Shown one piece after another: positions 46,240-64,000 of a stretch of DNA of 64,000 bases. The stretch's first letter is position 1. Each line of letters begins with the position of its first letter. The notes under the pieces are model-generated. The model worked only from the letters and a program-made list of their open reading frames with translations, did not search any database and was not told the DNA's origin. This DNA is from Callorhinchus milii (lineage: Eukaryota): NCBI RefSeq assembly GCF_018977255.1, contig NW_024704742.1, positions 71,674,001-71,738,000 on the forward strand, read 5' to 3'. A program made the position numbers and the translations under genes.

Positions 46240-47675
46240 TGAACAAACCACACGTGAAACATCAGGTTGTAAAATAAAAAGAATACTTTTACACTGAGAA
46301 CAATGAATATTTACCAACACACGGAGGAGCCGCATGACCACATACTACACAGCGGAAAATCACAAATAATCCACATCAGAGCTTAAAGCCAGTGCCCCCA
46401 CCCCCACCCCTCCACCCCCCATTAGACGCCACGCTGTCCAAACCCACTCGACACAGGCGGCAAATGGCGTCTCCTCAACATTAAAAGTGCTCAGTCAGCA
46501 AATCCATTGCAGACTGTGTATCAATGAGAGATCTGTTCACACACACTGACCCCAATACAGCCTCACTCGTTGTGTAGAGTACCAGACGTCACACAACTTT
46601 CTTTCTGGGTTCTCTCTGCCTCACTCCCTCCCTTCCCCCCTCCCTCTGTCCCTCCATCATCCTCTCTCTCCTCTCTCTCCCTCCATCTCCCTCCCTCTCT
46701 CCTTCCATCTCCCTCTCTCCTTCTCGCTCTACTCCATATCCCTCTCTCTCCCTCACTCCCCATCTCCCTCTTTCCCCCATCTCCCTCTCTTTCCTTTTCT
46801 CTCTCGCTCACTCAATCCCTCCATCTCCTTTCCTGTCTTCTCATTTCTCTCTATCTCCCCTACAGCCTCCATCTCCCCCTCTCTCTCCTTTTCTCTCTCT
46901 CCCTCACTCTCTTCATCTCCCTCTCTCTATACCCTTTCTCTCCTTCCTTTCCTTCTCTCTGTACCGCTCTCACTCCCCACCTCCATCTCTCTCTCTCACT
47001 ATTCCGGACGGACTTTCTTAAACTGGATACTATTTCACTCCCTCTCTCTATCCCCTCTCTGTCTCCCTCTCTCTGTCTCCCCTTCCTCTCCTCCTCTCCC
47101 CCACCTCTCTCACCCCCGCCTATATTGTGGAGCGGAACACAGCAGACAGTTTGTTCCTAGGGACCGGGAAAGAAAGGATTTTCAACACAACCTTTATTAT
47201 CACCTGATAATTGTCTCTCTGTCAGTCTGTCCCCCAGAGAGAGATAGAGACAGACAGAGAGAGAGAGAGAGAGAGACAGAGAAAGCGAGAGAGACGGACA
47301 AACAGAGAGACAGATAGACAGACAGAAAGAGGTGGGGGACAGAGAGAGGGTTTAGACAGAGACAAACACAGAAAGACAGACAGAGAAAGACAAGCAGAGA
47401 GAGAGAGAGAGACAGAGAGAGAGAGACTGAGCCCATATTCACTGTAGTTCCTGTTGTGTTTTTGTTCTGAGGGAGTGAACGACCAGAGACAGTTGATTTT
47501 TTTGCTTTAAAATAATGTTTCTGTCTCGGTATTAAGTGTTGCCACTCTCCCTCTCTCTCTCCCCTCCCTCCGCCTTTCTGTCCTCCTCCCTTCTACCCCG
47601 CTTTCTCTCTCTCTCTATCGCTCACTCCTTCTCTCTCCCCATCTCTCCCCCTTCCCCCGCCCCCCCACCCCCCCT
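46240..47675 (-). other. Probable 3' UTR of the CYP26 gene with long GA/CT low-complexity blocks
   Basis: Directly follows the stop codon. AATAAA on the minus strand at 47193-47198; a unique, TE-free, U-rich distal block at ~46240-46560. The extent is inferred. Confidence 0.5.
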
Positions 47676-48071
47676 TCACACGGTGGAGCCCAGCAGAGGA
47701 TCAGAACCAGAGGGCCGGATCTGGTTGTGGTTTGAGTCCAGGCCACAGAAGCGGACCCTGAGTCCATCCACGGGATGGACGACGGGGACGGTCTGCATGC
47801 GTGGGGGGGAGCGTGTGGCTAGCTGGAAGCGGCTGGAGATAGCCAACTCCACCCCCAGGACCTTCAGCACCAGCTTGGCCAGCTCCTTGCCCAGGCAGCC
47901 ACGCACCCCACCCCCGAACGGGATGTAATTGAAACGTCCGCCCTTGTTCTCGTCCCTCTCCTCGCCGAAACGATCAGGATCGAAGGCGGCCACGTTCTGG
48001 AACACCTGCGCCGTGTCGTGGGTGTCTCGGATACTGTACAATACGCTCCATCCCTTGGGAATCTGGCAGCC
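47676..48071 (-). CDS. cyp26b1: CYP26B-type cytochrome P450 (retinoic acid hydroxylase), terminal coding exon 6
   Basis: Translates [20 protein letters not shown]...FDPDRF...[18 protein letters not shown]...[22 protein letters not shown]. Contains the heme motif FxxGxRxCxG and the PDRF motif. Acceptor AG at 48072-48073 with pyrimidine tract and CTAAT branch-like site; TGA at 47676-47678; 396 bp. The C-terminus is B1-like, but exact orthology is unproven. Confidence 0.93.
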
Positions 48072-48344
48072 CTGCGGGAGGGAATGTCGGGATTGCGATT
48101 AGCCCAGCCATTCCTCTAATAATAACACTAATACTTGCATTTGATATTGCGCCTTATCACGTTGCTGAGACGTCTCAAAGCGTTTCACAGGATATATTGT
48201 AAAGTGGATTGGCTGGGTAGTTTGTTGCCGAAACACGGCAGCCAATTGCACACAGCAGTGTCCCACAAACAGTCGTGGATTGAGTGACCAAATTATTATT
48301 TTTTTGCAGGTATTATTAACCCCAGAAAATGATCCGTCAATTGT

Positions 48345-49015
48345 TCTTACTTCCACATCTATGCCATGACCCGCTCTGCCTTCGCCCACCTTCGCAACAT
48401 CGCCCGGCTCCGCCACTGTCTCACATCGGAGGCCGCTGAAACCCTCATACTCGCTTTCATTACATTAAGGCTCGACTATGCAAACTTCCTGCTTGTCGGC
48501 CTCCCCATCCCCTCCCTCCATAGGCTGCAGATCATCCAGAACTCTGCAGCTCATTTCCCCTCCCGCACCAGGCTCCTTAACCCTCATCCTCGCTCAACTC
48601 CACTGGCTTTCCATCACACAGAGGATACAGTTCAAGATCCTGGTCCTCACCTTCAAAGCCCTCCATGGTCTTGCTCCCCCTACCTCTGCGACCTCCTAAC
48701 CCCCTACCATCCTGCTCGCTCCCTCCGCTCAGCGGGCTCCGGCCTGCTTCACCTCACCCGCCCCAGCATTGGCGTGCGGCCTTCCGCCACTCTGCACCCA
48801 CCCTCTGGAACTCCATCCCACAGTCCCTCCCTTGCCACCTTCAAGACCCATCTCAAGACCCTCCTCTTCGACCGTGCTTTCGATCACCCTGCTCCCCCCC
48901 CACTACCCTCCACCCTCCCCGATCCCAACCCCGAGCTCGGGTCCGAAGTTCTGACAGTCCAGCGCCATAGGATGTCCTCCCGATGTGAAAAGTGCTATAC
49001 AAATGTAATTTTGTT
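48345..49015 (+). mobile_element. L2-clade LINE 3' fragment in CYP26 intron 5
   Basis: [50 protein letters not shown]. Confidence 0.85.
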
Positions 49016-49587
49016 GATTTTTTTCCTACTAGGTAAACAGAGGCATGTGCATGGAGTAAGGAAACTTGCCTAAGGTTTTGCCTCGCCCGGAAATTGAACA
49101 CGGATCCTCTCGCTTGCAGGGCAAGTGTTCCAACCACTACGCTACAATATGCCACTGTTACATTGTGAATTTGAAGAGGGAATTGGAATATGAGAGAGAG
49201 ATGGAAGGGGTGTGGGGACGGGACGGGGCATGGGATTGGATGGACAGGTTGCTCTGAGAGCCAGTGCAGACTCAATGGGCAGAATGGCCTTCTTCTGCCA
49301 TAGATTCCTGTGATGCTAAGTGTAGTCACTGTGTATTTTGTGGGCGAGCGTGGCAGACAGTTTGTGGCGACTTTTTTAAGCGGTTTGAGACGTTACCCTG
49401 CGTGCAGGGCGCTATATAAGTGTGAGTTGTTGTTGTCTGAATGACAGAGCCAGGCTGACTTTTCGCTCCATCAAAGTGCGCATCGCCCCCCACCCCTCCC
49501 TCCTGATCTTTAATCCTTTCCCGAGCCGGTCGGATGCAATGTCGCGGAGGTCACACAAGGGTGGGGTGGGGAGGGGAAGGGACTCAC

Positions 49588-49869
49588 ATCGAGTTCGAAG
49601 GTCTGCAGTGCTGACCTATAACCCCCGGACACAGGGGGCAGCAGGCGAAGCACCTCTTTAATGACACAGTCCAGGTACTTGAGGCGGGCAATGGTGTCCA
49701 TGCGGAGGGTCTCCTGGCAGCGACAGCCCTCCTGAACCAGCCCCTGATGGCCCAGCTCCTCACGCAGCTTCTCTAACACCCCAGGGTGCTGTAACAGCTG
49801 TAACACCAGAGAGGTACACGCACTGGACGTGGTGGCGAAGGCAGCGAAAATCAGCTCCACTGTCGACTC
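49588..49869 (-). CDS. cyp26b1: CYP26B-type cytochrome P450, exon 5
   Basis: 282 bp, phase 0: [29 protein letters not shown]...[30 protein letters not shown] (I-helix and ExxR motif). Acceptor AG at 49870-49871; donor GTGAGT begins at 49587. Confidence 0.93.
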
Positions 49870-49871
49870 CT

Positions 49872-50725
49872 GTCACAGAGAAAGAGTGTGTGTCAGTCAT
49901 TGAGAGAGAGTGTCACAGAGAGAGAGAGAGAGAGAGAGAGAAAGTGTCATAGAGAGTCAGTAACAGAGTCAAGGAGACTCGCGGAGAGTGAGAGAGTGTG
50001 TCATCAGTCACCGAGGGAGAGTTTCACAGATAGAGAATCAGAGTCACAGAGAGAGAATCATAGAGAGAGAGTCACAGAGAGAGTCACAGAGAGAGAGTCA
50101 CAGAGAGAGAGAGTCACAGAAAGAGTCACAGAGAGAGAGTCACAGAGAGAGAGTCACACAGAGAGAGTCACAGAGAGAGAGTCACACGGAGAGAGCCCTA
50201 GAGACAAAGTCACAGACGAGAGTCACACAGAGAGAGAGAGAGAGAGAGAGTCACAGAGAGAGAGTCTCAGAGAGAGAGTCACAGAGAGAGAGAGAGTGTC
50301 AGTCACTGAGAGAGAGAATCACAAAGAGAGAGGGGGAGAGTCTCAGAGAGAGGGAGACAGTGTCAGTCACACAGAGAGTGTGTCAGTCACAGAGAGTCAC
50401 ACAGAGAGAGTGTCAGGCACAGAGAGTCACACAGCGAAAGACAGTGTCAGTCACTCAGAGTCACAGAGAGAGAGTGTCTCAGTCACATAGAGATAGACAG
50501 TGTCAGTCGCTCAGAGTCACAGAGAGAGAGTATGTCAGTCACTCACAGTCACACACAGAGAGAGTGTGTGTCAGTCACTCAGAGTCACAGAGAGAGAGTG
50601 TGTCAGTCACTCAGAATCACAGAGAGAGAGAGACTGTGTCAGTCACAGAGAGTCACAGAGAGAGAAAGAGCGTGAATCACTGAGGGAGAGAGAGTTAGTC
50701 ACTGAGAGATTCACAGAGAGAGAGT
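49872..50725 (+). repeat. (GAGAGTCACA)n-type minisatellite abutting the exon 5 acceptor
   Basis: About 850 bp of degenerate AGAGAGTCAC / GTGTCAGTCAC units. Confidence 0.95.
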
Positions 50726-51099
50726 AACAACAACAACAAATTGCATTTAAAAAGCGCCTTCCACGTCAGGAGGATGTCCCAAGGCGTTGGACAATGAGGG
50801 GTTTGCCCCCGAGCTGCGGGTTGAGATCAGAAGATGGGTGGAGGGAAAGGGGGATGAGGATAGCAGGGTGACCGCAGGCACAGTCAAAGAGGAGGATCTT
50901 GAGATGGGCCTTGAAGCTGACAAGGCGGTGGGGCTCCAGAATGGCATTCCAGGGGGTGGGAACAGAAAGGCTGAAGGCCTAACCACCTGGAATGGGCAGG
51001 GCGGGGGACATGGAGCAGGCCATAGTAGAGGGAGTGGACAGGTTGGTAGAGTTTGAGATGGTGACAGAGGTAGTCACTCCTCATCTACAGTACTCCCCA

Positions 51100-51855
51100 A
51101 ACCCTCCTCCACATTCCTCTGACATCTCCCTCTGCATCTGTTCTGATTGCCTCGTCATCTTGGGTGACTTTAACCTCCACTTTAACCCTTCTTGCTCCAC
51201 ATCTGCTGACTTCTCCTCACGACCTCTCCCTCATATCAACTCCTCCACTCACATCCATGGCCACCCGTGAGACCTGGTGATCACCTGGGGCCTTACCATC
51301 TCTGATGTTACCATCACTGACAGAGACATCTCAGATCACTATTCCATCTCCCTTAACTCCTCCATCCCCCTCCTGGCACCCACCCCACTGGCATCTCCTA
51401 TCTGCCCCTGGAGAAAAATCCCCCTCCATGCCCTCTCCACTGTCCTGGAAGCATCTGAACTCCTACCCCTCTGGCCCTCCTCCTGCAATGGCCAACGTTC
51501 CTTGGTCACTCTTCTAAACAACTCCCTCTTGGCCATCCTCGACACACTTGTCCCCGTTATCTCCTGCACCGCCTCCTATTCACACAAATCCCCCTGGTAC
51601 ACCAGCCACCTCCGCTCCCTCAAATCTCAGGTGCGATCCTCCAAATGCACCTCATGCAAATCCAAATTAACGGTTCATTGTCAGATCTGGCAGGACAGCA
51701 CCAACTGCTCTGCCCTTGCCTCAGCTAAGTCATCCTTTTATTCCAAAATAATTTTGAAAGCTAAGGACAAGCCCAGACTCCTCTTTTCTACCATAAACCA
51801 ACTCCTCCGTCCCCCCTCCCATGCCTCTGCCATCCTCTCCTCCAACACTAAATGG
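51100..51855 (+). mobile_element. L2-clade endonuclease-region fragment in CYP26 intron 4
   Basis: LVILGDFNLHFN..THIHGHP*DLVIT..ISDHYSI..KSPWYT..PRLLFSTINQLL. Confidence 0.8.
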
Positions 51856-52180
51856 TAATTGAATATAACAGCCAGGGGCCTGAGGGCTCACGCTAATAAT
51901 AATAATAATCCTTGCATTTGATATAGCGCCTTACCACATCGTTGAGAGGTCTCAAATCGCTTCACAGAATATACTGTAAAGTGAATTAACTGCATATTAT
52001 GCAGGCGAAACACGGCAGCCAATTGTGCATAGCTGGGTCCCACAAACAGTCATGGACTGAATGACAAAATAATTTTTTTTTGAAAGAATTATTACTTGCC
52101 TAAGGTTTTTATTCTGCCCGGGGAATCGAACCCAGGTCCTCTGGCTTACGAGGTGAGCGTTGTAACTACTATGCACTCAC

Positions 52181-52336
52181 CTTGAGTTCCTGCATGCTGA
52201 GCTCCTTGCCATGCTCGCGGGCGCTCTCGATCAGGATGTCCAGGGCGTCTGAATACTCCTTGTCCTGCCCGCCCTGCAGCTTCTCGCTGATGGCTTTCTG
52301 CAGGTATGTGTACAGGTTGTCTCTTGCTCGCATTCC
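52181..52336 (-). CDS. cyp26b1: CYP26B-type cytochrome P450, exon 4
   Basis: Hand translation (not in ORF track frame): [52 protein letters not shown]. 156 bp, phase 0, ccag acceptor and GTGAGT donor; matches the vertebrate CYP26B1/C1 exon 4 size and MQELK end. Confidence 0.92.
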
Positions 52337-54112
52337 CTGGGGGTGAGAACCGGCAACAGCGATTAGCAGCCGCGCATTTCATGCTTCAATACTGCAACTT
52401 TGCAATATTACAACATCGTAATACTGCAACATTACAGTGGCAACACCTCAATGCCACCAACGCAATGCCTGAATAGCCATCACAATAGCAACATCGCAGC
52501 TACAGAGTCACAGTCACTACCGCAACACTGCAATCGCAATGTCCTCCGATCTGACCCAGTAGCTTTCTCACTGAGAGTCTGCCACTGGTGTCTAACCTCC
52601 CCTTTAAATCACTTTGCTTCTGATATTGCGCCTCATCACATGGTCAAAGCGCTTCACGGGATTCACTGTAAAGTGTAGTGATCGTGCATTCGTAGGCGAA
52701 CATGGCAGTCGATCTGCTCATCCTATCAAGTTGTTGTCAAACAGCCACGAGGTAAGCGAGTGAGTTGATTTGGCAGATTGTCGGCCAGAACATCGGAACT
52801 CTCTTTTCTTTCCCAACAGCGTCGATGGATCCTTAGCATTCATCTGAACAGGCACAGAAGGGAGCCCGGTTTAACACCTCATCCAGAGTGTAGTGAGTGA
52901 GTGTAGCGACTGTGGCTGAGACATCCAGATTTTTGGGAGGAATCAGCCGGGTGTCTCAAACATACGAAACCCATCACCATGTTTGAGTCTCCAAACCAAG
53001 CTGAGAATTCCATGCATCCCAGCTACACATGGAAATCCCAGAGAGAGATTGTTGGAATGAAATGTGCACTCTATTCTTGGAGGGACACATCCTGTTTACC
53101 TAATTCCGGAGAGTATTAGGCACAGGTTGGCAAGAGCCAAGGCTTGGGGACCCCAGAGTGTGTGTTGGGGTAACTGCTGGAATCTAACCGGCTCAGGCTC
53201 TCGCATTCTCAATCAGAGGGTCGTGGGTTCAAGCCGAAGTCGGGGACTCTGAGCTCACAGTCCAGGCTGACGCTCTAGTGCCGTGATGGGGGTAGAGAGA
53301 GCGCCTCAATGTCAGAGGTGCCGTCTTTCGAATGAGACATTAAACCTCACTCCCTGTTCGTGCAGCAGGCGGTAAAGACCCCGCGGAGCTGTTGGAAAAG
53401 AGAAGGGAGTTTCTCTCTCCTGGTGTCCCGGCCAATAATAAAATTAGTCATTCACTTCACTGCTGCAACAGCGGGATGTTGCTGTGCGCAAGTTGGCTTC
53501 TGCATTCATCCACAAAACAGTCACTACCCTTTACAGCAAATCCTGTGAAGCGCTTTGAGCAGTCTCTATGTTCTAGGTGATTAATCAATCGCAGAACTAT
53601 ACAATAATTAACATGACATTTCCAAACTCCCCCGCTGCTTGACTATTTATCCTATTTATCCCAGAATTCCAGATGAGACGTTAAGCCAAGGTCCCATCCG
53701 ACTGCTCAGGTGGATGTTAACGATCCCGTGGTGCTATTGGAAAAGAGAACAGAGTCTCTCTCTCCCGGTGTTCTGGCCGACAATTCCCCAGATAAAATTG
53801 GTCCCTCATTTCACGACTGTGGCACACTGCTGTGTGCAAACTGGCTGCTGTGTTTCACCCACAAAATACACAGTCACTACAGTTTACAATATATTCTGTG
53901 AAGCGCTTTGACAACTCTCAACAATCATAAATGCAAGGATTATTATTATTATTAGATTATATATTATTTTCCTAATCTATAATAAGACAAATGTAATATC
54001 GTCCACAAAATATACAGTCAATTCACTTTACAGTGTATTCAGTGAAGTGCTTTGCGATGTCTCGAAGATGTGATAATAATATTAATAATCCTTCCATTTC
54101 CTCTCTCCCCAG

Positions 54113-54388
54113 GTCTTTGCTAAACTGTTCAGTCACGACGCATTGCAGAGTTACCTTCCGAAGATCCAGCAGGTAATCCGGGATGGAATCCGAGATTGGA
54201 GCAGCAGTGAGGAGCCCATCGTGGTTTATCAGGAAGCTAAGAAGCTGACGTTCCGGATTGCCGTGCGTGTGCTCCTAGGTTTCCAGGTCTCTGAGGAGGA
54301 CCTCAGCCTCCTCTCCAGCAACTTCGAGCAACTCGTTGCTAATCTCTTCTCCTTACCCCTCAACCTTCCCTTCAGTGGGTACAGGAAG
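54113..54388 (+). CDS. cyp26b1: CYP26B-type cytochrome P450, exon 3, inverted relative to exons 4-6
   Basis: 276 bp open frame [25 protein letters not shown]...[13 protein letters not shown]...[16 protein letters not shown]. Acceptor ctctctccccAG ends at 54112, donor GTACGC starts at 54389, phase 0; same length as vertebrate CYP26B1 exon 3. Confidence 0.9.
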
Positions 54389-54404
54389 GTACGCCGTAAT
54401 CACG

Positions 54405-54810
54405 ATAATAATAATAATAATTACAATAATAAAAGCAGTAAAATTGATAATAATAATAATAAAAGTAATAGTAATAACAATAAGACTTATAATAATAAAA
54501 AATTATAATTGTTATAATTATTAACGGTGATAATGATTAATATAAAATAATTAATAACCCATAATAATGATAATAATTATTATATTCTGTGAAGCGCTTT
54601 GAGACTCTTCGAAGACAGGATAAGGTGCTATATCAAATGTAAGGATTATTATTAAACATTATTATATATTCAATAACATGGGTTATTAAATATTATTATT
54701 ACCATATTATTTATGATTGTAATATTTATAGTGATTTTAATAATATTTATTTTAATCATGATTAATAATTCTAATAGTGATTATAATATAATAATTAATA
54801 ATAATCCTTG
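54405..54810 (+). repeat. AT-rich (AAT/ATT) low-complexity tract directly after exon 3
   Basis: Degenerate AAT repeats interleaved with SINE tails. Confidence 0.85.
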
Positions 54811-55734
54811 TATTTGATATAGTGCATTATCATGTCATTGAGACTTTTCAAAGCGATTCACAGGATATATTGTAAACTGAAGTAACCGTATTTTATGGGA
54901 AAAACATGGCAGCCAATTCTGCACAGCAAACAGTCGTGAATTGAGTGACCGAATATATAAAACATTTTTGGAGGTATTATTACCCCCGGAAAGCGATCCA
55001 CCAATTGGTTAACAACTGGGTTCCTACTTACTGCTGGGTAAACAGAGGCCTGTGGAGTAAGGAAAGTTTAGGGTTTGGTTTGAATGGTTAATATTCACTT
55101 CCCGACTGTTTGCGGGATATTGCTGTGTGTAAATTACATCTGTATGTAGATTTCCTCGGTTTCCTCAGCATTTTCAGAATGTCCAGAGTTTATAACATAA
55201 TAATAATCGTTCCATTGACATAGCGACTTATCATGTCAAAGCGCTTCACAGAATATACTGTATAGTGACTGTGTATTTTGTGGGTGAAACAGGGCAGGCA
55301 ATTGCACACAGCAGTGTCCCACAAACAGTCATGGATTGAGTGACCAAATTATTAATATTATTTTTTTGTTTATTTGGGAAATTCTTGAACATGACCTGAA
55401 TTTTGAAGCATTCCTTTTTAAGAAACGACAGGAAACTGGCCTCAGAGTTAAGAATGAATTCTGTTCGTTTGGCACAAACACTGCGGAGTGCTGAGAGAAT
55501 AAGAGTGAATCTGACTCATATCGGCAGGACTTGGAAGGGCAGATCAGTCACTGGGGGCAGGGAAACCTCCTACTCAGCTCCTGTTAACCCTACAAACGAA
55601 AGCTTGAACGGGCTGCGAGCTGGACAAGCAGCGGGAAAGCTTGCCAGACAGTGGTCTCAATGGCAAGTTACTTGGTTTTAGTTCCATGTGTAAGCGACAA
55701 ACACAGATGAAACTCTGGTTTGGACAATCTTAAG

Positions 55735-55920
55735 CACAGTGATGGGTTTCCGCATGTGTTCGACACCCGGCTGATCACAGTGATGGGTTTCTGTGTATAT
55801 CAGACACCCGGCTGATCACGGTGACAGATTCTGTGTGTGTCAGACACCCGACTGATCTCAATGACAGGTTTCTGTGTGTGTCAGACACCCGGCTGATCAT
55901 AGTGATGAGTTTCTGTGCTG
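55735..55920 (+). repeat. ~41-bp tandem repeat (about 4.5 units) derived from the end of the unclassified repeat
   Basis: Unit cacagtgatgggtttc..gtgt.cagacacccggctgat starting at 55735, 55776, 55817, ~55857, ~55898. Confidence 0.9.
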
Positions 55921-58900
55921 ACCTGATGGATGTCCTCTCGGACGTCAGTCTCAGCTCTGGGCACAACAGAATGAACTTTCACGTCAGGATGTGTTTCAAA
56001 ATACTAATTCTCAGCTGTAGGTGACATACGTTCAACTCTTTGTCTTGTTTGGAGACTCTTAAACAAAGTGATGGATTTCTACTTGTGTCAGACATCCAGC
56101 TGATCCAAAAAATTATTCAGTGTATAAACCCCATTAACTCCAAGGTTAGATTGCAGCTGGTAACTCACTTCCTGGATTCAAAATAATAATAATTTTACAT
56201 TTAATACAGTGCCTTTCACATCGAGAGGATGTCTCAAAGCGCTTCACAGGACTTCATTGTAAAGTGTGTGTTTGTGGGTGAACGCAGCAACTAATTTGTA
56301 CACAGCAACGTCCCACAAACAGCCATGAAGTGACCAATTTTTGGGGGGGATTGTTGGCCTCGACACCAGACAGAGAGAAACTCCCTTCTCTTTTTCCAAT
56401 AGTGCCATGGGATCTTTAACATCCACCTGAACAGGCAGACGGGACCTTGGTTTAACATCTCAGGACATTAGTGTGTGAGAAACATTGCGTCTCTGTGTTC
56501 AAGATGTCTCTGCGTGCGGACCACCCTCTGTGTTGGCGTCCGTGACAACATTCCTCCCATCGCCCACCCCCCCCCACACACACACACATATACACACCAA
56601 CTCATGCACTTCCACGTTCCCGCTACTTATTTTACGCATAAGAAACAGAGACATTTTGTGAATTGATCGTGGGCGGGGGAGTGGGGGGGAAACGGTTATA
56701 AACCAGAACGGGAGACTCGAGAGGTCACTCACAGCGACAAGCCCACACTGCGCAGCGCGGTGGGATGGGGATGGGTGCGGGCGGGCGCGTGGAGTGGGGG
56801 GGGGTGGATTGAAAATCTGACTGCGAACCACATGAAAGGGGAGCGACCAGCTGTAACTTGTTTTTTTTTATCATATTGTGTCGGTAAAAGGAGCAGGCTG
56901 TTCCCCTGTCGAGCGTCAGATAAAAAGGGCGAGAGTGGGAAGCCCATGGGAATACATCTTGGTGGCGACTGTTACAGTTCTTGGCTGTCAGGGCCGGGAA
57001 TTAATGGGGGTTTGATGACAGGATTTTTGACAGCCACACAAAAGAGGTGTCAGCGAGGACGACACAAGACATTAGAAGAATGATTCTCCTCTCCCTTGGT
57101 TTCAGTGTCTGCGCTGTCATCCGTCTGCCAATCTCCCAGTCGCTGCTTATCTAAAGAGCCATTTATCCTCCTCTTTCCCACAGGCTTTGCCAGATCGGGA
57201 CCTGTGCCTGGATTTCGTGACGATACCCTGCAACTGGCCTTCATTAACTTGAGACAAGTATGACTTTGTGGGTTTTTTTTTTTGTCGCTCGAACTGACAT
57301 TCGGACACCGAATGTCCGAATGGTCGGGAGAGGGAGGTGTGTGAGAGTGTGTGAGTGAGTGTGCACGAGTGTGTGTGTGTGTGTATAAGCGTGTGTTCAA
57401 TTGACACTTTTAGGTTTGGTAAGAGGTGTTATTCGGATGAAACGTTAAACCAAGCTCCCATCTGTGCCTGTTGCCCAGGGCTGTTTGCTGTGCTCAAATT
57501 GGCTGCCGTGTTCTCCTACAAAGCACACAGTCACTGCACTTTACAGTACATCCTGTGAAGCGCTTTGGGACATCTTCCCAATGTGAAAGACATAATATCA
57601 AATGCAAGGATTATTTTTATTGTTGTTATGTATCACGATTCACTTTGGCACAGCAAAGTCCCACAACAGCCATGAAGTGAGTGACCAATTTTTTCTGGGG
57701 ATTGTTGGTCAGTCCACAGGGAGAGAGAAACTCCATTCTCTTTTCCAACAGCCCCGCGGGATCTTTAACATCCACCAGAACAGGCACGGACGGGATTTTG
57801 GTTTAACCTCTCATCCAAAGGATGTCTCCACTGACTGTGGTACTCCCCACAGCACTGCAATGGAACGTCAGCCTGGATCGTGAGCTCAGAGTCTCAAAAT
57901 GGGGCTTAAACCCACAGCCTTCTGGCTCAGAAACAAGAGCGCAAGAGACTGAGCCAGGCTGATATCAAAAACCTTAAAAGGGATATACGGAAAAAAACAG
58001 CTTTGAAATCAAGGCCATGTTGAAGAATTTATTAATTGTAAAATGCTGAGAAAATAGAGTAAATGTGGAGCCAGGAGGGGTTTGTGCCCAGGTCAAATTC
58101 TAGCCTGAAATTTAGGCTGGGAATTCAAGACAGCGTCTGCTCACCCTGTGCGAAGGCTTTAGGTTCAAAATAAGGCAGCATAGAATTATGGGATGTTTCT
58201 TAATTTTTAAACCTAGGACAACTTCAACTTGTATTTACACAGCAGCTTAATTCAGGACAGCGTCTCGGAGCATGGGGCAGGGCAGAGTTGGATGGGAAGG
58301 CGGGGGAAAGGGGGAGGTAACTATAGGCACCTGATGATGGAGTATTAACATTTCAAAAACTGGATTGAGGCTGAAGTCTAATAGTTTAAAATAATAATCT
58401 TATGTTTGAAATAACGCCTTTCATGTCTGGAGGACGTCTCAAAAGCGCTTGCTTCACAGGAAATACGGTAAAGTGTAGTGACTGAAGAGAGATTTTCTCC
58501 TGGTGTCCTGGCCGACAAAACCCCAGATAAAATTACCCGCTCACTTCACAACTGTTTGTGGGACACTGCTGTTCACAAATTGGCTGCCACATTCACCCAT
58601 AAAATACACAGTCACTGCACTTTACAGTAAACCGTGTGAAGCCTCCTCCTGACATGAAAGGCGCTGTAGGGAAGGATTATGATTATACTTGTGGAGTCCT
58701 GTAGTGTAGTGGTTAGAGCACTTGCCTCACAAGCAAGAGTAGGTTTGATTCCCAGCCAGGGTGAAATCTTAGATAAATTTCCTTACTTCACACGCTTCAG
58801 TTTATCTAGCAGTAAGTAGGTACCTGGTTAGTTGGTTCCTACAGTAGTGTGGCCCCCGGGGTGTGATTGGCGTATCGCTTTTCTGGGATAATAATCCCTT

Positions 58901-58974
58901 CCAAACAAAAGTTTAATCAATGATCACTCAATTCACGACTGTTTGTGGGACACTGCTGTGCGCAATTGCTGCCG

Positions 58975-58999
58975 NNNNNNNNNNNNNNNNNNNNNNNNN
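58975..58999. other. Assembly gap (25 N)
   Basis: Run of n characters. Confidence 1.
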
Positions 59000-59425
59000 G
59001 GTTAGATTCCAGCAGTTACCCCAACACACACTCTGGGGTCCCCAAGCCTTGGCTCTTGCCAACCTGTGCCTAATACTCTCCGGAATTAGGTAAACAGGAT
59101 GTCCCCTCCAGGGAGACCGCGAGAGAGAGCACAATCCATCCCAACAATCTTTCTCTGGGATTTCCATGTGTAAGCGACAAACACAGATGAAACTCTGGTT
59201 TGGACAATCTTAAGCACAGTGATGGGTTTCCGCATGTGTTAGACACCCGGCTGATTCCTCCCAAAAATCTGGATGTCTCAGCCACAGTCGCTACACTCAC
59301 TCACTACACTCTGGATGAGGTGTTAAACCGGGCTCCCTTCTGTGCCTGTTCAGATGAATGCTAAGGATCCATCGACGCTGTTGGGAAAGAAAAGAGAGTT
59401 CCGATGTTCTGGCCGACAATCTGCC
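59000..59425 (-). repeat. Inverted near-duplicate of 52772-53189 with a mosaic centre
   Basis: 59241-59425 is the exact reverse complement of 52772-52956. 59000-59102 is the exact reverse complement of 53087-53189. 59162-59255 is a direct copy of 55682-55775 with one mismatch. Confidence 0.95.
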
Positions 59426-60794
59426 GCGTTTTGCCCACAAAATACAGTCAGTTCACTTTACAGTATAAGAATAAGAATAATCCTTGCATTTGATATAGTG
59501 CTTTTCACGTTTTCTCGACATCTCAAAGTGCTTCACAGAATATACTGTAAAATGATTGACTGTATATTTGTGGGTGAAGCGTGGCAGCCAATTGCTCACA
59601 GCAGTGTCCCACAAACAGTCGTGGATTGAAGTGACCAATTCATTATTTCTTTTTCTTGAGTGACTATTATCAGGCATGAGGAGTAACGAAACTTGCCCAA
59701 GGTTTCGCCCTGCTGGGAATCGATCCCAGGTCTCTCGCCTGCGAGGCGGCTGCTCTGATCACTGAGCTACAGGACTCCTATGTTCTGTGAAATACTTTGA
59801 GACGATGTGATGAGGTGCTACATCAAATGCTAGGAAGGAAGAAAGAAAGAGCCATAAAATGATTGACCAAATTTCAGTCCCCAGAGGGGATGTCGGAGGT
59901 GGCGAGGGGGCGAGGGCGGCTGGGTGGGGGATAAAGTGCTGATCCCCAGCGTGTTGTAGCCATGTGGCTAGTGTGGCCCCTGGGGTGTGACAGGGAGCAG
60001 GTGTTTCCCGGGCAGGTCAGAGCCCGCCTGCCAGGAGCACCTTTGTTCATGTGGGATAAAGCCCCACAGGGAGCGAGGCAGGGAGGGAGGGTAAAGGAAA
60101 AGAATTCCTGCACATCCCTCCCCCCCCCCCCCCCCCCGTGGGCCAACACTCGCTGTCAAAGACTGAGCTCTGTTGACTGACCTGCTCACACCCCCCCACC
60201 CCCCCACCCCAGGAGGTGCCTATTGTGGCACACTCACAGTCACTCAGACAGGTACTCCACAAGACCTCTCTCTTTCTTTCTCGCTCTCTTCCCCCCCGCT
60301 TGCCAGTGGGGGCGGGGGTGAGTGAATGAGACGGCGTTTCAGGGCAGCTATGTATTGGGGGGGGGGGTTAGCTCTCTCTGGGGGAGGGGCGCGTCCAGGA
60401 CAAAAAGCACCCGCTCAGCGCCTGTCATCTTTTCAGGATGAAGATGGATGGGGCTGGTTCACAGCGCTGAATGGGGCTCGGGCTCACTGACTGCTGATCT
60501 GAGCTCGACACCACACGTGTGTGTGTGTGTGTGTGAGAGAGAGAGTGTATGAGATAATGTGTGTGAGAGAGTGTGACTGTGTGTGCGTTTGAGAGAAAAA
60601 GAGAGAGACAGTGCGTGTGGAGAGAGTGTGTGTGTGAGAGAGACTGTGTGTGTGTGACAGTGTGTGAGAGTGTGTGTGTGACAGAGAGAGTGCATGTGAA
60701 AGAGTATGTGTGTCGGAGTGTGTGAGTGAGACAGTGTGTGTTTGTGTGTGAGAGAGTGTGTGTACGTGTGTGAGAGAGTGTGTGTGTGTGTTTG

Positions 60795-61400
60795 TACTAC
60801 AACTACTACAAATTGCATTAACACAGGTTTTCACGTGAGGGGGTCGTGCCAAGGGGTTGGATAGTCCAGCACTTGCACCCGAGTTGGGGGTGGTGGAGGG
60901 TGGGGAAGGGGGGAAGATGATCAAAGGTGCAGTCAAAGAGGAAGGCCTTGAGATGGACCTTGAAGCAGTCATGGGAGGGGGGATGAGGTGGAGGAGCTTC
61001 GGGATGGAGTTCCCGAAGATGGGGACAGAAAGACTGAAGGCCAGACCACCGATTGTGGTGCGGGCAGGGGACAAGGAGCAGGCCAGTAGCCCGTCGAGTG
61101 GAGGGAGAAGGCAGGTTGGTATCATTTTAGTAGGTCACAGAGGTAAGGAGGAGCAAGTACATGGAGGATTTTGAAAGTTAGGACGAGGATCTTGAACTCG
61201 AACCACTGAGTGATGGGGAGCCAGTAACGCCTGGGCGAAGATGGGGGTGATCGACTCATGGAGCTTAGTACGGTAGAGGACACAAGCTGAATAATCTGCA
61301 GCTTGTGGAGATAAGAGTTGGGAAGTCAAGTGAACAGAAAGTTGTCGTAGTAAAGCCTGGACATGATAAAAGCTTGGGTGAGGGTCTCAGTGGTCTGAAA
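60795..61400 (-). mobile_element. L2-clade LINE 3' fragment
   Basis: Degenerate RTKLHESITP..TTIGGLAFS.. segment plus L2-type tail. Confidence 0.75.
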
Positions 61401-61890
61401 GGACAGTGGGAGTCAAACAAAACCAAAGTTCTCTACTGGCTCCGTGAGGTGGAGAGTGCATCCGTGTAGAGTGATCCTGTCAGTGCATGAAATGAGAAGT
61501 TGTTGACGAGAACCAATAATAATAATCCTTGCATTTCATACAGTGCTTTATCATGTTGTTGAGATGTCTCAAATCGCTTCACAGAATATACTATAAAGTG
61601 GAGTGACTGCGTGTTTAGGGGGCGAAAACAGGAGAAATTCTGTCTTGTATTAGTGAATATCTGTATGTATGAGTGTGTATATCTGTGTGTGTGAATCTCT
61701 CTTGCACATCCGCACACATCCACACCTACAATAAATAATCACTGTGTTTGATAGAGCAGCTACAATGTCAATGTGCTGCACAAGGAATCACAGTTAAGTG
61801 TAGTGACTGCTTATTTTGTAGGTGAACATTGCAGTCATTTTGCACCACTCAACTTGCTTCGACAATGCTGCTCTGATATACACTGATATT

Positions 61891-62009
61891 CACACTGATA
61901 TACTATACACACTGATATACTATACACACTGATATACTATACACACTGATATACTATACACACTGATATACTATACACACTGATATACTATACACACTGA
62001 TATACTATA
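61891..62009 (+). repeat. 17-bp minisatellite, 7 perfect copies
   Basis: Unit CACACTGATATACTATA. Confidence 0.95.
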
Positions 62010-64000
62010 ATAATAATAATACTTGCATTTGATATAGCGCTTTTCACATCTTCTAGACATCTCACCGTGCTTTACAGTTGGGCACAGCAGGTCCCACGAA
62101 CAGTCGTGGATTGAGTGAGCACATTTTTTTTATTGTTTTTTTTTGAAGGGATTATTACCCCCCAAAAAGCGATCTGCCAATCAACTAACAATCGGGTTCC
62201 TCTTACTGCTGGATGAACACAGGCCATAGTTTCACCGTGCCCGGGAGTTGAACTTGGGTCTCTCATTTGCCAGGTGCTGTCAATTGGCTGCCGCATTTCA
62301 CCCACAGTCAATTCACTTTACAGTATATTCTGTGAAACGCTTTGAGATGTCTCAACGATGTGATAAGCCACTATATCAAATGCAAGGATTATTATTATTC
62401 ACTCTCATATACTCTGGTATACCCACACACTTACACACGCACTGTGTCTCACACGGATACGCATATTCTTTCATACTCACATGCTGTCTCACACATACCC
62501 TGTCACACACATATGTTTTCTCACACAAAAACGTTCTCTCCCACGCACCACACACACACACAGACACGTTTTTCTCACACACGTTCTCTCACACACGCAC
62601 ACACGTTCTCACGCAACACACACACATTCTCTCACACAATTTCTCTTTCATGCATACAGTCTCACACATACTTTCTCCCACTTATACTCTCTCAGGTGGT
62701 GACCGGTGTCTCCTCTCAGTGAGGGGAGGGTGTGTATTTGCAGAGAGAGCAGCTCTGTCACACCCTGTATTAAGGATATGAAACAGCCTACAGTGGAAGT
62801 TGTGCTTTGTTTGGGAACCTGTAGGATTACAGGCGGGTTAATCGTGCGGTTTAGAAGCGCTTAGCGACAGTTCAGTTGCTAGAATCGGATAGTTGAGGAA
62901 TAATGAAGTGTTAATCTGATCTGTTTATAGGGACACCCTGCCTCCGAGGCCAGACACCGCATTCCACCCAATCTCAGCCAGTCTGTCTATCCTCCAGTCT
63001 CAACTTCCCCCACGCGCCCCGCCCCCATCTCAGCCAGACTCAGCCTCACCCGTGCAGTCTCTGTCTGTCAGTCTGTCTGTCTCCCAGTCTCAATCCCCTC
63101 ACCCCCCCCTCATAGCCAGTCTCAGTCTCAGTTGCCAGCCCATTCTCAACAACAACAAGTTGCATGTGTACTGTGCCTTTAGGAGTCGAGTATGTGCACC
63201 TGAGCTGGGGGTTAGGATCAGGAGGATGGAGGGCAGGAAGGGTACGGGTAAGAGGGTGACCAAAAGCACTATCGAAGAGAAGGGTCTTGAGACAGGTCTT
63301 GAAGAAGGCAATCGAGGGGGTGAGCAGAGGGGCTCTGGGATGGAGTTCCAAAGAGCAGGGGGCAGAGAGGCTGAAGGCCCGCCCGCCAATGGTGGGGCGG
63401 GTATGGCGGGTGACGTGGAGCAGGCGGCAGGAGCCTGCTGAGCGGAGGGAGAGGACAGGTTGATATGGACTGTCAAAAGTGAATGAGATACATATCTAAA
63501 AAGGAGCAGGCTACAGGGTGTGAGGAAAGGGCAGGGAAATGGAACAGACACCATGGGCCGAATGACCATCTTCCATGCTGTAAATTTCTAGAGTTCTGTC
63601 CTCACTAAACTGTGAGACATTTTTCTATCGAGTATTGATTTAGAAGTTGGTTTTCGTTTTTAGGACTAAGAAAAATGGCTTCCTACATTGGGAACATGTG
63701 CAGCGCAGAGCTGAAAAGTGGGCTTCGTGAGGCATCAATTATCACATAATATCTCTCGCTCGTGATACACAGTCTTTAACTCAATAAACCACAAAATGCT
63801 TCACAGGATTCACTGCAAATTGCAGTGACTGTGTGTTTTGTGGGTGAATGCAGCAGCACAGCAACATCTCACAAACAGCCGTGAAGTGAGACTTATTGTA
63901 TCTGGGGGATTGTCGGCCAGGAAACCTCTTTTCTAACGGCCGCATGGGATCTTTTAACATCTGCCTGGACATGCACAGATGGGGACAGCCTAGCAAGCAC

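Follow-up and report, generated by a model that had tools for sequence, protein, structure and literature searches.

CYP26B1, the vertebrate retinoic-acid 4-hydroxylase, degrades retinoic acid, is developmentally essential and is encoded by a conserved six-exon gene. In an elephant shark (Callorhinchus milii) assembly, its exon 3 is placed on the strand opposite to exons 4 to 6. The closest described counterparts of this arrangement are errors in scaffolded long-read assemblies, polymorphic inversions that arise by non-allelic homologous recombination, and the trans-splicing of opposite-strand exons. Errors in long-read assemblies include contigs flipped in place, misjoins in repeats and leftover contig ends beside gaps. 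Our locus likewise has one or more segments inverted relative to their flanks, candidate break points in dispersed repeats, a duplicated inverted contig end next to a short run of N, missing sequence, and transcripts that contradict the assembly. It differs from a visible scaffold joint in that the exon 3 piece is joined to exon 4 without N, which places the error inside a contig or in a closed gap. With polymorphic inversions the locus shares a segment bounded by inverted sequence that includes blocks of 100% identity. Unlike such inversions, however, one copy of the repeat sits here right at the edge of a gap and splits a SINE; the gene next door is scrambled as well, and some exons are absent. 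In Drosophila mod(mdg4), exons encoded on the opposite strand are trans-spliced, and at both loci an opposite-strand exon appears in the mature mRNA in sense orientation. In contrast to mod(mdg4), the elephant shark exon is internal and constitutive, neither a transcript nor a promoter of its own was seen, and in public models built on genome sequence it shares the strand of its neighbours. To our knowledge, the known cases of opposite-strand trans-splicing concern alternative terminal exons. The passages returned by a full-text search of the literature contain nothing on the CYP26B1 locus or on errors in the C. milii assembly.

We conclude, with a probability of about 0.92, that the plus-strand orientation of exon 3 is an assembly artefact and not biology. 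Assembly error is almost certain because the species' own mRNA joins exon 3 to exon 4 normally, and because the surrounding DNA is visibly mis-assembled. The window, by which we mean the whole analysed stretch of 64,000 nucleotides, contains the following parts of CYP26B1.

47679..48071, minus strand: coding part of exon 6, 131 codons; the stop follows at lower coordinates
49588..49869, minus strand: exon 5, 282 nt, located by tblastn
52181..52336, minus strand: exon 4, 156 nt, phase 0 at both ends, supported by translation, tblastn and the RNA contigs X5 record 17 and X7 record 25
54113..54388, plus strand: exon 3, 276 nt, intact, on the strand opposite to exons 4 to 6

The coding part of exon 6 corresponds to residues 371–501 of P0003 with 100% identity (tblastn). 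Exon 3 consists of 92 codons without a stop, is in phase 0 at both ends, and is flanked on the plus strand by AG at 54111–54112 and GT at 54389–54390, at a distance of 1777 nt from exon 4. An earlier note, made from the sequence, had described exons 4 to 6 on the minus strand and, 1.8 kb from exon 4, a plus-strand exon 3 of 276 bp with an open frame, phase 0 ends and AG/GT sites; translation and tblastn bear out this description. Its statement that the window holds neither a minus-strand exon 3 nor a plus-strand exon 2 or 4 also stands, as tblastn with three CYP26B1 proteins detected in the window neither exon 3 on the minus strand nor exon 4 on the plus strand, and exons 1 and 2 on neither.

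Exon 3 is identical to annotated C. milii CYP26B1 over 92 residues (100% identity, E 4e-50, with tblastn in agreement) and is 80–82% identical to CYP26B1 of sharks and rays; all full-length hits carry PF00067. The exon is present as a single copy in the whole assembly and shows no decay, and when the rest of the assembly was searched for the exon 3 piece, as a haplotig or as another copy, only SINE matches came up. Because the assembly as a whole holds one exon 3, a second, minus-strand copy past position 64000 is absent; the earlier note had allowed for one there, which would make the plus-strand exon an inverted duplicate. The plus-strand exon 3 is the genuine, single and functional CYP26B1 exon 3 of the elephant shark.

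Evidence from RNA comes from contigs of the public runs X5 and X7, two runs guessed to be RNA, which were compared with a 17-kb stretch of the locus. Contigs of the public runs X1 and X2, rather than raw reads, served for the DNA comparison, and its findings hold among the matches listed. The GT..AG joints of introns 4 and 5 are present in both X5 and X7 but absent from the two DNA runs, and the X5 and X7 contigs are therefore spliced RNA. The intron between exons 5 and 6 (48072–49587, minus strand) has GT..AG ends in the spliced contigs of both runs, and the borders of exon 5 follow from two joints of the same RNA contigs, 48070>49587 and 49868>52180. X5 record 17 (1575 letters) spans exons 6, 5 and 4. 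Joints whose shorter side has 19–29 letters lie within SINEs and were excluded from the evidence.

The most informative contig, X7 record 25 (1014 letters), reads through exons 3 to 6 in a single sense; its exon borders are exact, and 0 letters differ.

Letters 79–354: exon 3, 54111–54386, plus strand
Letters 355–513: exon 4, 52338–52180, minus strand
Letters 514–795: exon 5, minus strand
Letters 796–1014: exon 6, minus strand

Its first 78 letters have no match in the 17-kb stretch, as expected for exon 2. Of the RNA junctions that the earlier note had named as a check, that of exons 3 and 4 is thus present in this record, and a contig joining exon 2 to exon 4 is absent among the matches listed. 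The normal exon 3/4 junction (PFSGYRK/GMRARD) is also found in a 512-aa NCBI protein and in three of the four UniRef isoforms from the same species; the fourth isoform continues after exon 3 through 25 codons (75 nt) of plus-strand DNA and then joins exon 4. Since a genome-built model cannot cross strands, gene models with this junction count against exons on opposite strands. The RNA run may come from an animal other than that of the assembly; on its own it therefore leaves room for an inversion that only the sequenced individual carries, or for which that individual is heterozygous.

The neighbouring gene, EXOC6B, is likewise distributed over both strands.

57184..57257, plus strand: third-from-last coding exon, with AG and GT sites, 2.8 kb from CYP26B1 exon 3
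79586–79702 and 81001–81132 (window-equivalent), plus strand: the next EXOC6B exons
119058–118960 (window-equivalent), minus strand: exon 1

The first of these exons matches the C. milii EXOC6B-like protein P0047 at 24 of 25 aligned residues, the mismatch being a residue past the exon end. The last three exons of the gene are therefore on the plus strand and exon 1 on the minus strand, and residues 32–706 have no match on C1. On C7, the paralogous EXOC6 and the two CYP26 genes all share a strand, with EXOC6 first and CYP26 after it. CYP26B1 exons 1 and 2 (residues 1–143) have no match on C1 or elsewhere in the assembly save in paralogues on C7 and C13; they account for 0 of 24 genome matches in one search and 0 of 6 in another, and are also absent from the 60 kb beyond the window.

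The DNA around exon 3 contains a gap, a stretch together with its inverted near-copy, and a SINE that is broken at the gap.

52772..53189: left copy of the duplicate (X_L), 418 nt, beside exon 4
53190..55681, plus strand: segment R, which carries exon 3; candidate borders; single-copy in the assembly apart from SINEs
55682..55775, plus strand: 94-nt fragment of a dispersed repeat, 99% identical to 59162–59255 in direct orientation; candidate break point
58975..58999: run of 25 N, an assembly gap
59000..59426: right copy of the duplicate (X_R), a 427-nt inverted near-copy that begins at the first base after the gap
59427..64000 (start of a block), plus strand: continuation of the SINE that breaks off at 58974

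Within and just beyond X_L, 52772–52942 is specific to the locus and 52943–53193 is a copy of a dispersed repeat of about 250 nt. Nucleotides 1–171 of the 52772–53189 stretch occur at only two sites, X_L and X_R, among 40 scored genome matches. The outer blocks of X_R are 100% identical to the reverse complement of 53087–53189 and 52772–52958, whereas its middle block differs from X_L and instead matches 55682–55775, which makes X_R a mosaic. The repeat part of X_R has 81–85% identity to the eight family copies that were compared, and that of X_L 88–91%. The fragment at 55682–55775 is followed by about four tandem units of 43 nt, up to approximately 55930. The mosaic structure, with outer blocks of 100% identity around a different middle, cannot be fully explained as a plain artefact.

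The gap and X_R together interrupt an otherwise continuous SINE, since the letters before the gap and those from 59427 are colinear. Paired SINE hits elsewhere in the window have an exact 6-letter overlap in 13 of 17 cases and agree within one letter in 16 of 17, with one misfit. By this colinearity, and with the next EXOC6B exons also on the plus strand, 55682–58974 and the stretch from 59427 belong to one plus-oriented block that carries the 3' exons of EXOC6B. The earlier note had pointed to a nearby gap, which is the run of 25 N, and to break points at 53189 and 55683. Both correspond to genuine borders of repeats: the inverted duplicate ends at 53189, and the 94-nt fragment begins at 55682.

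Two DNA contigs, X1 record 3 (0 differences) and X5 record 18 (1 difference), span 52652–53014. They independently confirm that the join between X_L and the exon 4 side is real, and the error thus does not lie at that edge; the idea that the 418-nt stretch is single-copy and the contig chimeric at 52771/52772 was rejected, as DNA contigs of two runs cross this position. The listed DNA contigs of X1 and X2 end at 53014 and restart at 55871. Contigs are short, and none bridges 53014–54113 or 54389–57183 among the matches listed. As no DNA contig was seen across a break point, the true orientation in DNA is deduced and not observed. The orientation or the placement of segment R relative to exon 4 is wrong, and one false join must lie between 53014, where the DNA-verified stretch ends, and 54113, with another between 54389 and 57183. 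N are absent at 53189/53190, at 55681/55682 and from the whole stretch between exon 4 and exon 3, and so false joins at these two positions would have to sit in gap-free sequence.

Several simple rearrangements were considered and rejected. A single flip of 53190–58974 between the two duplicate copies is not the whole story, because this segment holds a plus-strand EXOC6B exon, and such a flip would also leave exons 1 and 2 missing. Flipping the entire plus-oriented block, which runs from 53190 as far as the following gap (window-equivalent 92715), would leave exon 3 upstream of the 3' exons of EXOC6B, and this gene order is wrong. The repeat-bounded flip of 2.5 kb or 5.8 kb envisaged in the earlier note is too simple, as the wrong orientation or placement affects two segments or more and there is missing sequence in addition. 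An attractive alternative is a cross-over of the assembly path inside the shared 94 nt (55682–55775 and 59162–59255), by which intron 3 would come out correctly, at about 2 kb. However, it conflicts with the DNA contigs, which have X_L's own version of the repeat beside the exon 4 side (52943–53014, 0 differences in X1).

Very unlikely, in our view, is a real inversion of the exon 3 segment in the germline of the sequenced animal. It would be private or polymorphic, probably heterozygous, and would have arisen between inverted repeats; its haplotype would be the one assembled, and the normal mRNA would come from the other allele or from another animal. The earlier note had considered a recent or polymorphic inversion and, more speculatively, a recurrently flipping cassette exon, and nothing that we saw supports either. 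An inversion would be consistent with a segment bounded by inverted sequence (52772–53189 and 59000–59425, with two blocks of 100% identity), with the undecayed exon 3 and with the N-free sequence from exon 4 to exon 3. The repeat copy at 52943–53193 and the fragment at 55682–55775, which bound the 2.5-kb piece, also have opposite orientations, but they are only about 80% alike over 60 nt and would be a poor substrate for recombination. Moreover, an inversion would not delete exons 1 and 2 from the assembly, would not set the 3' exons of EXOC6B on the strand opposite to its exon 1, and would not put X_R exactly behind a gap within an otherwise continuous SINE. The absence of an exon 2–exon 4 contig among the matches listed also speaks against it. 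Slightly less likely still is the specific form in which one haplotype of the sequenced elephant shark carries an inversion of a few kilobases that flips exon 3 between inverted repeats, with this haplotype picked by the assembler. If an inversion were true, the animal would carry a natural heterozygous knock-out, or an allele with an in-frame deletion of exon 3, of the developmentally essential CYP26B1.

Another highly improbable reading takes the plus-strand exon for an inverted duplicate of recent origin and places the true exon 3 with exons 1 and 2 in the missing sequence. In its favour, the loss of exons 1 and 2 means that more of the gene could be missing, and an EXOC6B exon is encoded on that strand too, with the plus-strand exon 2.8 kb upstream of it. 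However, the RNA contig matches the plus-strand copy with 0 differences over 276 letters, one public isoform includes 25 codons of that copy's own flanking DNA, and the assembly contains one copy only. An exact duplicate of the exon and its flank is also a more complex assumption than a misplaced piece. A truly opposite-strand exon 3, linked with exons 2 and 4 through the trans-splicing of separate transcripts, has a negligible probability: although the mRNA contig of exons 3-4-5-6 is formally compatible with it and AG and GT are intact on the exon's own strand, an internal constitutive exon needs two trans events per mRNA, genome-built models place exons 2 to 4 together on a single strand (and one such model includes 75 nt from beside exon 3), and the many independent signs of mis-assembly make it unnecessary.

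Assembly artefact, which the earlier note had named as the likeliest explanation, is the reading favoured by the exon 3/4 junction in mRNA, the missing exons 1 and 2, the duplicate at the gap and the conflicting strands of EXOC6B. On this reading, the animal has exon 3 on the strand of exons 4 to 6 and splices it normally. The assembled region is a patchwork from approximately 53 kb to at least 93 kb (window-equivalent), in which a small piece with exon 3 (about 53.2–55.7 kb) and a larger piece with the last three exons of EXOC6B (about 55.7–92.7 kb) are both plus-oriented, between flanks whose genes read on the minus strand. We infer that each piece was flipped in place and that the false joins lie in repeats, with candidate positions at 53014–54113 and near 55682. 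Sequence that belongs at the borders of the pieces is absent, namely CYP26B1 exons 1 and 2 and most of EXOC6B, and the inverted near-copy of exon 4-side DNA, 427 nt long, is left over behind the 25-N gap.

The significance of this finding is one of quality control only. Users of the assembly who turn to CYP26B1 or EXOC6B for gene structure, regulatory landscape, synteny or variant calling would be misled, and gene prediction from the genome alone would yield a truncated or exon-skipped CYP26B1.

Within the window (G000:C1:71674001-71738000, part of contig C1 in the 0.99-Gb assembly G000), tblastn with the C. milii CYP26B1 protein placed the following exons:

54113-54388, plus strand, CYP26B1 exon 3
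52181-52336, minus strand, CYP26B1 exon 4
49588-49869, minus strand, CYP26B1 exon 5
47679-48071, minus strand, CYP26B1 exon 6, coding part

Exon 3 is 1777 nucleotides from exon 4, is flanked by AG (54111-54112) and GT (54389-54390), and has a stop-free reading frame that begins and ends in phase 0. Translated on the plus strand, 54113-54388 gives 92 residues that match the annotated C. milii protein at 100% identity (E 4e-50) and CYP26B1 of sharks and rays at 80-82%. Within the window, tblastn found neither a further exon 3 nor either of exons 1 and 2 of this gene. The earlier note had described an intact exon 3 with AG/GT sites and phase 0 ends on the strand opposite to exons 4-6, and the tblastn placement, splice sites and frame bear this out in all details. 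The plus-strand exon 3 is a genuine feature of the assembly.

Contigs, rather than raw reads, from four public runs with the same organism label were aligned to positions 47001-64000. Spliced contigs are present in two of the four (X5 and X7), both of which contain the joints 48070>49587 and 49868>52180 with GT..AG ends on the minus strand; among the joints listed, these occur in neither of the genome-sized DNA runs, X1 and X2. Record 25 of X7, with 1014 letters and 0 differing letters relative to the window, is placed as follows:

Letters 79-354, 54111-54386, plus strand, exon 3
Letters 355-513, 52338-52180, minus strand, exon 4
Letters 514-795, 49868-49587, exon 5
Letters 796-1014, 48070-47852, exon 6

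The order is exon 3, 4, 5, 6, all in the sense direction, and the exon borders are exact; offsets of 2-3 letters arise where letters match on either side of a joint. A mature mRNA therefore carries an ordinary exon 3/4 junction, which the earlier note had proposed to look for in RNA. The first 78 letters of the record have no placement within 47001-64000, as expected for exon 2. In X5, exons 6, 5 and 4 are covered by record 17; of its 1575 letters, 754 fall outside the pieces listed, and the exon 3 junction is taken from X7 record 25 alone.

The protein cluster of the matching protein comprises a 512-aa NCBI protein (P0042) and four UniRef isoforms. The sequence ...PFSGYRK|GMRARD..., which spans exons 3 and 4, is present in the NCBI protein and in three of the four isoforms. 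The fourth isoform, P0003, includes 25 extra codons from plus-strand DNA 3' of exon 3 (54389-54463, identical by tblastn), reading past the exon 3 donor to A|GT at 54464/54465, within 54389-54466, and resuming at an acceptor, TTCAG|, in the middle of exon 4, within 52250-52260. Such translations are built on one genome strand, so exon 3 and its flank should lie on the strand of exons 4-6 in at least one C. milii assembly. P0003 itself looks like a poor gene model. Asn-rich intron read-through replaces 30 conserved residues in this isoform, and none of the four UniRef isoforms starts with exon 1, all opening in sequence derived from a SINE or an intron. P0042 is placed on a contig with 139,202,109 bases, as many as C1, and contains both exons 1-2, which are encoded nowhere in G000, and exon 3 from the opposite strand; this model appears to have been completed from transcript data.

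Searched against G000, the whole protein gives 24 matches and its N-terminal part six, and CYP26B1 exons 1 and 2 are among neither set; they are also absent from the 60 kb beyond the window. In the G000 search these exons (residues 1-143) gave only paralogue matches, located on contigs C7 and C13. Two tandem CYP26 genes adjoin EXOC6 on C7. The gene on C13 (G000:C13:10516011-10531820, minus strand) is a fourth CYP26 gene, with exons 54-66% identical to CYP26B1, and is probably the known CYP26B2, because a passage in PMC5247814 discussing chondrichthyan CYP26B1/CYP26B2 duplicates names C. milii.

EXOC6B is represented on C1 by only four pieces, identified by a Sec15_C search and with the frog EXOC6B protein (P0153). 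Window-equivalent coordinates carry the same numbering past position 64000 along C1.

57184-57257, plus strand, 3' exon with AG and GT sites, 24 of 25 residues identical to P0047 (a C. milii EXOC6B-like fragment)
Window-equivalent 79586-79702, plus strand, 3' exon, 39 of 39 residues identical to P0047
Window-equivalent 81001-81132, plus strand, last exon, 43 of 44 residues identical to P0047
Window-equivalent 119058-118960, minus strand, exon 1, 82% match to frog P0153

Both mismatches to P0047 are at exon edges. Residues 32-706 of EXOC6B have no match on C1, and the same query finds 18 exons of the paralogue EXOC6 on C7. There, EXOC6 shares its strand with both neighbouring CYP26 genes and comes before them, an arrangement also seen for human EXOC6B and CYP26B1. 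The EXOC6B exon at 57184-57257 is 2.8 kb from CYP26B1 exon 3 in the same gap-free sequence. Thus, two genes within 70 kb have exons on both strands, and their plus-strand pieces are adjacent.

A run of 25 N occupies 58975-58999, and at the first base 3' of this gap begins an inverted copy of 52772-53189, a stretch located 436 nucleotides from exon 4. Runs of 25 N are a type of placeholder left by some gap-closing programs. The outer blocks of the duplicate (52772-52958 and 53087-53189) are 100% identical, and the middle block of about 128 nucleotides differs from the left copy and is 99% identical, in direct orientation, to 55682-55775. Nucleotides 172-418 of this 418-nucleotide stretch are part of a dispersed repeat of about 250 nucleotides, copies or parts of which are located as follows:

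52943-53193, dispersed repeat
59000-59254, dispersed repeat
55682-55930, dispersed repeat

A genome search with the 418-nucleotide stretch returned 6234 first-look candidates, and 38 of the 40 scored matches start at nucleotides 155-197; among these 40, nucleotides 1-171 occur only at the two places. The repeat has thousands of copies, 86-91% alike, and its last unit of about 43 nucleotides (gtgatgggtttc...gacacccggctgat) is present in roughly four tandem copies at 55776-55930. The repeat part of the right copy is 81-85% identical to eight family copies, compared with 88-91% for the left copy; the mosaic make-up of the right copy could stem from local gap filling or from a second haplotype. 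At 52964, contigs of X2 and X5 carry an A>G change absent from X1. The G is also the state in the right copy and in other repeat family copies, and the change is probably an ordinary polymorphism.

One SINE is split here: the part that reaches the gap with ...ctgccg (58974) and the part from 59427 on are consecutive. Among 17 window sites with both parts, 13 have the exact 6-letter overlap, three are within one letter and one is a misfit. Given this colinearity, the gap and the 427-nucleotide inverted copy look like an insertion into continuous sequence, which fits the EXOC6B exons on either side of the gap, as these share orientation and order. A single N at window-equivalent 76063 and a further run of N at window-equivalent 92715-92739, again exactly 25 long and within 34 kb of the first, suggest a series of unresolved joins in the region.

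Several independent faults mark the assembly of this locus: missing exons, a gap and inverted duplicate, a broken SINE, and N runs. Both flanks are minus-strand: to the left lie CYP26B1 exons 4-6, to the right EXOC6B exon 1. The pieces that do not fit are that of exon 3 (about 53.2-55.7 kb) and that of the EXOC6B 3' exons (about 55.7-92.7 kb). Flipping both together yields the wrong gene order. If each were flipped in place, the minus strand would show the expected order, with EXOC6B from exon 1 to the last followed by all six CYP26B1 exons in turn, and the borders of the pieces would coincide exactly with the missing stretches (most of EXOC6B; exons 1-2 of CYP26B1). This is probably the true layout. 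Positions 52652-53014 are confirmed by DNA contigs of X1 and X5, so the left copy of the duplicate truly follows on from the exon 4 side. Therefore, one false join lies within 53014-54113 and another within 54389-57183, for which the repeat fragment at 55682 is a candidate.

It is improbable that the sequenced animal carries a real, private inversion. The RNA may be from another animal, and among the contig pieces listed no DNA read spans a break point. Such an inversion leaves unexplained the missing exons, the EXOC6B conflict and why the duplicate sits at the gap. We consider it less probable still that the plus-strand exon is an inverted exact duplicate whose true counterpart lies in the missing sequence, an arrangement that is possible but requires more assumptions. 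Trans-splicing of exon 3 as an internal constitutive exon is scarcely credible, since every mRNA would need two such events and the genome-built gene models contradict it. The earlier note's speculative flipping cassette exon is unsupported. Its preferred explanation, an assembly artefact, gains support from the ordinary mRNA junction, the missing exons, the gap and duplicate, and the EXOC6B conflict.

Users of this assembly should be aware that CYP26B1 exons 1-2 are missing from it, as is most of EXOC6B, and that pieces at window-equivalent 53-93 kb are wrongly oriented. As biology, the opposite orientation of exon 3 is almost certainly not a real feature.
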